From a virus (lineage: Duplodnaviria > Caudoviricetes), in the IMG/VR virus record IMGVR_UViG_3300012953_007654, positions 1-25,850 of that record: 25,850 nucleotides of DNA. One strand, written 5' to 3'. Every line of letters starts with the position of its first letter. Positions within the stretch are counted from its first letter, which is position 1. Of this stretch, positions 272 through 25,305 are shown in pieces. The position numbers were made by a program, and so were the translations under genes. Below the pieces are notes generated by a model. That model was not told where the DNA came from. It ran no database searches and saw only the letters and a program-made list of their open reading frames with translations.

Positions 272-689
272 GGGCCCGCTTGGTATCGACGGGTGCTTTT
301 TGACAATAGAGTGCAGCAAGGTTTGAACAAGACCTGTTAAAAAAGGTTCACTAACTCAAATGGTGATAATTCACTAGACGGGTTGGTAATCGATTGGCAT
401 TTAGCCGATCATGATTCAGCACCTCATGTAGGTTCTGAGTTGGATTACCAACAATCTTATTCCTACGCGGCATAAGATACTGAGTTGTCTAACACTCGGT
501 CATAAAATAAGTTAGACACAAACTCGTGTGGTAGAGTATAAGAGTCACCTGTTGACAATCAGAACAAATGTCTAGTGGTTTTGCAGGTAAATTAATAGGC
601 CTCCTAAAGCTGATGGAAAACCTGACTAAGCTGTAAATGACTCGTTGTTAACGGTATACCGGACGGGAGTTCGAATCTCCCCGGGTCCA
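272..689 (+). ncRNA. ssrA: Phage-encoded tmRNA
   Basis: Acceptor stem GGGCCCG (272-278)/CGGGTCC (682-688) with G3-U wobble and discriminator A689 (Ala identity). 5' GGTATCGACGGG motif. T-arm GGGAG-TTCGAAT-CTCCC (665-681). Helix 2: TGACAATAGAGT/ACTCGTTGTTA and TGCAGC/GCTGTA. PK1 at 319-350 (AGGTT/GACCT, TGAAC/GTTCA); PK2 at about 480-518 (TGTCTAAC/GTTAGACA). Tag ends YAA-stop. Confidence 0.96.
362..475 (+). other. tmRNA tag reading frame: (A)GDNSLDGLVIDWHLADHDSAPHVGSELDYQQSYSYAA*
   Basis: Resume codon GGT follows an 11-nt spacer after PK1 with A at -4 (CAAAT-G), the spacing known from E. coli. Open for 37 codons to ...TAC GCG GCA TAA; the stop sits in hairpin ATCTTAT/ATAAGAT (454-478). Confidence 0.85.
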
Positions 690-24723: not shown

Positions 24724-25305
24724 ATGAATGGAGACGTTAAAATAGGAAGACTACTTTGTGATCATGATATTATTACAAAGCGGCAACTAAATCAAGCACT
24801 TCAATTGCAAGTAAAGGGAGATAAGCGAAGTTTAGGCGAGTTACTCGTTGAGAAAGGATTTTGCTCACTTCAAGATATCACCGAAATAATATTAGAGCAC
24901 GGTAATGGTCACGAAGAAAAACAAGAAGAAATCACTGAAAAAATAGAGCCTAAAGAAGAAGTGGTTAAAGAATTGAGTGAAGACACAAAATTTTCTATGT
25001 CAATACAAACAATGGTTGCAATAGGAACAGCTATAGCATCTTTAGTTGGAATGTATTATATGCTTATCGGTGAAATAGAAGAAGCAAAACAATTACCAAG
25101 TTTAGAAACACTATATAAAGCCGAATACCCGTCTAGACCGGAGGGATATAATTGGCCAAGATCATATGAACAGTATAAAGACCAAGTTGGTACATTGCAA
25201 GATGACATGGATGAAGCATACGGTGATATTGAAGATATGAAAGATATTATTAAAGAATTAAGAAAAGATATTAAAGACCTCGAAAAGAGAAAACGGGACA
25301 AATAG
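24724..25305 (+). CDS. MshEN (T2SSE_N)-like domain + single TM + coiled-coil protein
   Basis: KIGRLLCDHDIITKRQLNQALQLQ and SLGELLVEKGFCSLQDITEIILEH follow the tandem 24-aa MshEN motif. TM: TMVAIGTAIASLVGMYYML. Heptad-rich C-terminus. Confidence 0.7.
   Translation: MNGDVKIGRLLCDHDIITKRQLNQALQLQVKGDKRSLGELLVEKGFCSLQDITEIILEHGNGHEEKQEEITEKIEPKEEVVKELSEDTKFSMSIQTMVAIGTAIASLVGMYYMLIGEIEEAKQLPSLETLYKAEYPSRPEGYNWPRSYEQYKDQVGTLQDDMDEAYGDIEDMKDIIKELRKDIKDLEKRKRDK

Follow-up and report, generated by a model that had tools for sequence, protein, structure and literature searches.

Identification of the tmRNA gene

The 25,850-nucleotide (nt) stretch of DNA analysed here, referred to as the window, comprises positions 1 to 25,850 of the IMG/VR virus record IMGVR_UViG_3300012953_007654 (Duplodnaviria; Caudoviricetes), which carries baseplate genes. 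Close to the start of this DNA, which is from a marine phage, lies a gene for a transfer-messenger RNA (tmRNA) with an exceptionally long tag reading frame of 37 codons. ARAGORN calls a single tmRNA at 272–690, and the Rfam covariance model RF00023 matches at 272–692 with 70.7 bits, compared with a gathering threshold of 47, the model being spanned in full (1–374). Both of the scans that the original prediction had proposed as a check therefore call a tmRNA from position 272 and, taken with the acceptor stem and pseudoknot 1 (PK1), they bear out its claim of a complete, phage-borne tmRNA of 418 nt. The parts of the gene are as follows.

272–692, + strand: one-piece tmRNA gene, 418 nt up to the discriminator A689, followed by an encoded CAA instead of CCA (sequence, ARAGORN and Rfam)
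272–278, + strand: 5′ strand of the acceptor stem, pairing with 682–688; the wobble G274·U686 is the alanine identity pair (Rfam alignment and fold)
317–350, + strand: PK1, with stem 1 at 317–322/332–336 and stem 2 at 324–328/346–350; the homologous stems covary in relatives
351–361, + strand: spacer of 11 nt, in which position 358 (−4) is the equivalent of A86 and position 361 (−1) is a U
362–475, + strand: tag reading frame, 37 codons plus TAA at 473–475, with an acidic start, a conserved core (codons 5–18), a variable linker and a C-terminal QSYSYAA
479–517, + strand: pseudoknot 2 (PK2), 479–485/494–500 and 487–493/511–517, conserved in relatives
662–688, + strand: T arm and 3′ strand of the acceptor stem (sequence, Rfam and fold)

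With the G3·U acceptor stem, the discriminator A, the T arm, PK1, the A at −4 and a stop codon within helix H5 all in place, the window tmRNA is genuine. Its CCA end would need host enzymes. Neither a sigma-70 promoter nor a terminator was found flanking the gene.

Parts of the window are contained in 20 RNA runs, each with at most 0.36 of the sampled words. Within positions 1–1500, the contigs of four seawater metatranscriptomes (four runs from four studies) fall solely on 272–688. One metatranscriptome contig begins at 272, and exact pieces covering 288–491 and 349–502 cross the tag. The runs were picked by the tmRNA gene itself, and the contigs show its presence in RNA libraries but cannot show its level, strand or ends.

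A family of related phage tmRNAs

Relatives were sought among viral contigs in three ways. A search with the neighbouring HD protein gave 46 loci, of which 12 have a tmRNA (one being the window's own); a pattern for the tag motif gave 68 loci, a set biased towards the motif; and a pattern for helix 2 and PK1, in which the tag plays no part, gave 59 loci, of which 56 are family members and three are matches other than tmRNAs. Removal of duplicates and of the incomplete loci L049, L055 and L079 reduced 139 profile hits to 74 distinct phage tmRNAs. The tag is 34–43 residues long in 72 of these and only nine residues long in the other two. Together with the RF00023 match and the reading frame, the 72 long-tagged relatives uphold the proposal that the phage supplies its own ribosome-rescue RNA with an unusually long, 37-residue tag.

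The resume codon and the length of the tag

The first codon of the tag is GGT (Gly) at 362–364, 11 nt past the end of PK1 at 350. In Escherichia coli the resume codon is 12 nt past PK1, and A86 is the main determinant of the frame (PMC2481249). ARAGORN reports only the last 22 codons of the frame, from 407, so alternative starts needed testing. Counted from the codon equivalent to Gly 362, position −4 is A and position −1 is U in all 74 distinct relatives, with a spacer of 10–13 nt. Within the long-tag relatives the A at −4 is found in 72/72 for Gly 362, compared with 48/72 at the ARAGORN site and 50/72 at the in-frame Gly7. Moreover, two tmRNAs of the same family (L214 and L260) have the nine-residue tag GNTANFAYA, which starts at the same Gly. 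These are natural controls, whether they represent the ancestral state or a reversion. Placement of the resume codon by the 11-nt spacing, as first suggested, is thus consistent with both the invariant A and the short-tag relatives.

Resumption further downstream, at Gly7 or at Asp16 as implied by ARAGORN, would give a tag of 31 or 22 residues. Both sites are in frame with TAG-like bases upstream, and codon 1 sits in a hairpin; for an E. coli mutant, pairing near the resume codon has been proposed to block selection of the frame (PMC2481249). The same hairpin, however, is predicted at the resume codon of 61/69 cellular tmRNAs of the likely host phylum (L118, L129–L205; shuffle mean 21.6), where no other start is possible. 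As the A at −4 is invariant at codon 1 alone, and the short-tag relatives begin there, both downstream starts were rejected and such a start would seem extremely improbable. It is very probable that the 37 codons from Gly 362 are translated in vivo. The original estimate that the tag has about 24 residues more than usual needs correction, the excess over host-type tags being about 27–29 residues. ARAGORN miscalls the long tags of this family, and automated annotation consequently hides them.

Conservation of the tag as a peptide

In the set of relatives found independently of the tag sequence, the pattern LxxLx[IV]DW[HQ][LMF]Axx[DE] is kept in all 42 long tags, which answers the suggestion that the middle of the tag be compared at the amino acid level. 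Identity is 0.78 in the tag core and 0.20 in the linker, the span from the Trp to the end varying between 22 and 31 residues. The net charge of the tag is −3 to −8 across the family. At least 24 changes in tag length have occurred, every one in frame, whereas the lengths after the stop codon are spread over the three frames (12/17/22). The alternative two frames of the tag region contain stops in 70/72 and 72/72 of the long-tag sequences.

Selection was assessed by parsimony on a tree built from the non-coding parts of the tmRNA, using the 51 of 57 full-length sequences that have Trp at codon 12. Synonymous and amino acid changes respectively numbered 12 and 0 for L5, 5 and 0 for L8, 13 and 3 for I10, 6 and 1 for H13, 14 and 5 for L14, and 9 and 0 for A15. 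Residue 18 alternates only between Asp and Glu. Taken together, these patterns indicate that the long tag is almost certainly under selection as a peptide.

Further searches with the tag gave little. No second copy of the motif was found in the phage proteins of five partial related records, and the tag had no match in PHROGs or the ESM Atlas. A likeness of the core to a motif of GH18 chitinases (E-value 0.095) was taken as chance. An AlphaFold2 model of the tag was uninformative, with a predicted local distance difference test score of 61.8, a predicted template modelling score of 0.17 and a single weak helix at residues 12–17. No cultured phage matches the window tmRNA, the search giving one 30-nt hit only.

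RNA structure within the tag frame

The tag region is also a structured RNA, with four helices in which part of the coding sequence is paired. The statistics below are from 62 of the 72 long-tag sequences, which could be aligned, and count sequences rather than independent events.

361–376, + strand: resume-codon hairpin, 361–366/371–376; 92.5% of alignment cells paired, two pairs with two-sided change
382–452, + strand: long-range helix 382–391/443–452 between the GLVI and the DYQ codons, enclosing the WHLA hairpin 392–398/404–410 (centroid fold); one pair with 22 two-sided changes
454–478, + strand: helix H5, 454–459/473–478, containing the stop codon; 96.8% paired, three pairs with two-sided change

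In the resume hairpin the window copy has a U–A in place of a C–G pair, a change that is synonymous on both sides. Positions 380–386 could alternatively pair with the spacer, and this pairing also scores. Since the extension is a structured RNA, its conservation alone is no proof of peptide function, and the formation of helices by the tag codons means that part of this conservation is at the RNA level. The original prediction that the middle segment around LVIDW is conserved therefore holds for the peptide, given the 42 long tags and the synonymous excess, but has to be qualified in that the extension is conserved as RNA as well.

It might be argued that selection on RNA structure alone maintains the extension, for stability or to control loading onto the ribosome, with the extra peptide translated but nearly neutral. 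The region folds far better than shuffled sequences (z −5.55) and, in each of the 12 cases tested, better than its synonymous recodings (z −1.4 to −4.0), compensatory changes exist, and G7, D11 and W12 are nearly invariant at the nucleotide level, with almost no synonymous change. At the unpaired sites of the tag, on the other hand, third positions average 10.7 changes and second positions 2.3. The codons for I10 are ATT, ATC and ATA but never ATG, L14, which lies in a loop, is encoded by TTA, TTG or CTA and otherwise changes only to Met or Phe, and the G·U pair at L5 is never turned into G–C. A role in RNA structure alone is thus very unlikely. With conserved helices on the one hand and the third-position excess and the codon usage at I10 and L14 on the other, the tag module is, on the evidence of the aligned sequences, coded twice, as RNA and as peptide.

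Gene neighbourhood

Downstream of the tmRNA gene the window encodes a 171-residue signal-peptide protein of an unknown PHROG family (918–1433), which adjoins the tmRNA in 10/42 loci, and an HD-type phosphohydrolase (1430–2176). A 193-residue open reading frame (ORF) at 24724–25305 has only weak and short PHROG matches (E-value about 1e-3). The commonest gene family beside the tmRNA is present in only 19/42 loci, and no neighbour travels with it. Several contigs (L003–L012, L014–L016 and others) encode an HD protein that is 82–89% identical, yet have no tmRNA in the stretch around the HD gene. As far as can be judged from these contigs, the tmRNA gene is variably placed or lost among close relatives.

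The likely host and its tags

The relative G123, a T4-like phage genome of 165 kb that is 79% complete, has genes for bS21, Hsp20, a TonB-dependent receptor and, near the tmRNA, a peptide deformylase. The deformylase has a SEC-C motif (L275:7892–8524), bS21 lies in a head-gene module (L278:6539–6763) and the receptor is full length (L281:3599–6334); three Mom-family proteins and a DruA-like protein are also encoded. The receptor has counterparts in 9/61 genomes of one phylum, with 61–64% identity along most or all of its length. The bacterial clusters nearest to it belong to Fidelibacterota, the NCBI name for Marinimicrobia, and the genome set searched for tmRNAs and for the receptor would appear to be of this phylum. 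The host of the window phage is therefore probably a member of Fidelibacterota (Marinimicrobia). Other routes to the host were set aside: bS21 (28–42% identity) and the peptide deformylase (2/61 genomes) were uninformative, and co-binning was unreliable, two bins having unlike cellular tmRNAs.

Among 69 cellular tmRNAs from this phylum, 62 have tags of 8–10 residues and seven have tags of 21, so that the phage tag is about four times the length of most tags in the likely host group. Several of the cellular tags nevertheless end in YAYAA or AYA, or start with GE, like those of the phages. A scan of 185,579 species genomes for the exact phage motif, which would miss a diverged one, found it in no cellular tmRNA; the three matches are one protein ORF and two phage-like contigs. 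The latter (L116 and L117) are binned in two bacterial assemblies, to which they add a second, long-tag tmRNA, the bins' own tags being of nine residues. Three cellular tmRNAs (L164–L166) have an insertion of about 21 nt within PK1.

Given the predominance of short cellular tags and the lack of a cellular tmRNA with the exact motif, the long tag is no general trait of the likely hosts. The original prediction had allowed that host tmRNAs with the same long tag would make it a trait of the lineage; this is not what is seen for most of the phylum, though one group without ClpX has 21-residue tags of its own, and long tags are accordingly not purely a phage invention there.

These 21-residue tags (G035, G075, G099, G087, G071, G106 and G103; L158–L162, L204 and L205) have the pattern AxxVPTHL[LF]...A[YF]A[MF]A. 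The two of the seven that were checked are chromosomal, as read from the ORF translations around them. All seven are from an order in which clpX is found in 1/42 genomes, clpP in 38/42 and lon in 41/42. They share with the phage family a helix-2 signature, the 3′ side of which is present in 7/7 of these cells and 23/24 phages but in 0/62 other cells, as well as the resume hairpin, HL-x-A and QP-like elements and the A[YF]A[MF]A end. They differ in being chromosomal, in their length of 21 residues and in having no IDW. In the tree, the phages group with the 21-residue clade with support of 94/95, and vertical descent is not rejected (approximately unbiased test, p 0.567); the likeness may reflect either transfer or vertical descent. 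A comparable helix-2 deletion is present in other seed sequences of PMC11915505 and can therefore be convergent.

By eye, the 21-residue tags are also similar to the Lon tag of Mesoplasma florum in its C-terminal half (VPT, then L, Q and YAFA; PMC9097571). This could be due to convergence or to transfer, and the resume hairpin may dictate the VP part. Such a likeness, together with tag ends that follow the loss of ClpX in this phylum, would amount to an independent recurrence of the switch to Lon seen in Mollicutes.

Tag ends and proteases

The C-terminus of the tag is [YFH][ASV][YF]A(A) in 60/74 phage tags, 26 of them without the extra Ala; in the window copy it is YSYAA. All but one of the 72 long tags end in Ala. 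The ClpXP-type AA terminus that the original prediction names for most bacterial tags is present in the window, the tag of which ends in YAA, but it is not fixed in the family, where only 39/74 tags have it. Two phages, one with the AA end and one with the AYA end, have host-type receptor genes that are 82% identical, which suggests that a single host group can be served without the terminal AA.

Of the cellular tags in the likely host phylum, 26/30 that end in AA come from genomes with clpX, compared with 2/39 of the others. No clpX was seen in 39/101 genomes of the phylum and in 41/42 of one order, these genomes being incomplete. Lon was found in 41/42 genomes of the order without ClpX and in 5/5 others tested, one genome being in both sets. 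In the order of G035 (42 genomes, clpX found in one) and in the genomes of about 1 Mb G026, G037, G081 and G089, in which clpX was not found, clpP and lon are kept, and the tags in genomes lacking clpX end in YA, VA, IA, FA or MA rather than AA. Mollicute tags are long, have an NYAFA end and are coupled to loss of ClpXP, with Lon reading several of their elements (PMC9382460, PMC7246954, PMC8403727).

The pattern of tag ends and ClpX in the host phylum mirrors that of the Mollicutes, most phage tags end in aromatic-Ala-aromatic-Ala(-Ala), and the receptor is shared across the different ends. For these reasons we tentatively favour, at somewhat less than an even chance and by analogy, a multipartite degron of the Lon type, used with host SmpB. 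SmpB is present in 5/9 genomes of one family of the phylum and was not found in the five partial records of related phages. The phage would transcribe its own tmRNA during infection, and this would be charged with alanine and enter stalled ribosomes with host SmpB. Translation would resume at Gly 362, the ribosome unwinding the four helices of the mRNA-like domain and adding Ala plus 37 residues. The peptide would then present a Mollicute-type signal, in which a linker that is free to vary in length joins the aromatic-Ala-aromatic-Ala(-Ala) end to a patch of hydrophobic and aromatic residues further upstream (LxxLxIDWHLA), the peptide being acidic and unstructured. Rescued proteins would most likely be routed to host Lon, their removal being independent of ClpXP.

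Several observations weigh against a Lon-type degron. The link to the host derives from genes of the relatives (G123 and G209) and not from the window. The association of tag ends with ClpX has a Fisher p of 1e-12, but this overstates it because the genomes are incomplete and come from about three related lineages. The chief point is that the genomes nearest to the phage receptor gene encode ClpX, which the phage therefore has no need to bypass; the window tag itself, too, ends in AA. Much of the conserved core is also base-paired. Strongly acidic tags can, moreover, hinder proteolysis.

The core could instead be a docking site for an adaptor or for the N-domain of a Clp ATPase of the ClpX or ClpC type, resembling the SspB site of E. 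coli, with the YAA or AYA end engaged by ClpXP or another partner of ClpP. The two-part layout with its free linker, the presence of ClpX in the nearest genomes and the AA end of about half the tags would all be consistent with such an arrangement. However, 35/74 tags are without the AA end, SspB was found in 0/5 genomes of the likely host phylum (incomplete genomes), the tmRNA has no constant gene neighbour, and the 116/139 ORFs of G123 that were scanned gave no Clp, Lon or adaptor family. We consider docking of this kind unlikely.

Similarly unlikely is a tag that protects or diverts, whether by slowing the turnover of rescued phage proteins, by acting as a protease decoy or by serving as a ligand of a phage or host factor. 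It would account for the net charge of about −7 and for the invariant DW, which is more specific than general hydrophobic degrons require, and the acidic 25-residue tag of the mycobacteriophage Bxz1 may point to a pressure specific to phages. Nearly all the long tags, though, have a degron-like C-terminus, two family members manage with a host-like tag of nine residues, and no partner was found in the phage proteins of the five partial records, the ESM Atlas or the neighbouring genes. A related proposal, that phages of Fidelibacterota re-route rescue products, the dual-coded LxxLxIDWHLAxx[DE] being a specific ligand that diverts them from host ClpXP or occupies a host protease during infection, is possible though on the doubtful side. 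If true, and taken with long tags in phages of unrelated families, it would make the rewriting of tags a widespread means by which phages control proteolysis in the host.

Comparison with known tmRNAs

Phage tmRNAs are on record (PMC4131195, PMC7162821), with 79 unique sequences in PMC11915505, and the literature examined describes them simply as ribosome-rescue genes. Neither this family nor long phage tags were found described in that literature, most subscription papers being outside its scope, and the full tmRNA database may include members. Selection on the long tags as peptides suggests that the phage alters what becomes of rescued proteins and not only the rate of rescue. The function of the window tmRNA is directly testable, and with 72 long-tag forms and two short-tag controls found in nature, the family lends itself to asking directly why phages carry a tmRNA.

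The window tmRNA has the same elements as the one-piece bacterial tmRNA of RF00023, namely a tRNA-like domain with G3·U, PK1, the A at −4, a tag frame, H5 and PK2. It differs in its tag of 37 codons, in three extra helices in the mRNA-like domain and in being phage-borne. The commonest tag length is ten residues (PMC11915505) and the reviewed range is 8–35 (PMC8012679), so that tags of 34–43 residues are at or beyond the upper limit. Like the 27-residue tags of M. florum and Mycoplasma pneumoniae, which have the NYAFA end (M. florum tag in PMC9097571), the phage tags combine length and acidity with a hydrophobic patch in the interior and, in 60/74, an aromatic-Ala-aromatic-Ala end. Unlike these Mollicute Lon tags they have the core IDWHLA, are longer, carry an extra Ala in about half, are phage-encoded and belong to phages whose likely hosts have ClpX; a reading by Lon would be by analogy. 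The tmRNA of Bxz1, listed as a phage ssrA in PMC4131195, is likewise phage-encoded, with an acidic tag that is longer than usual (25 residues by ARAGORN), but this tag is shorter than those of the present family, shares no motif with them by eye and comes from a phage of another host phylum.
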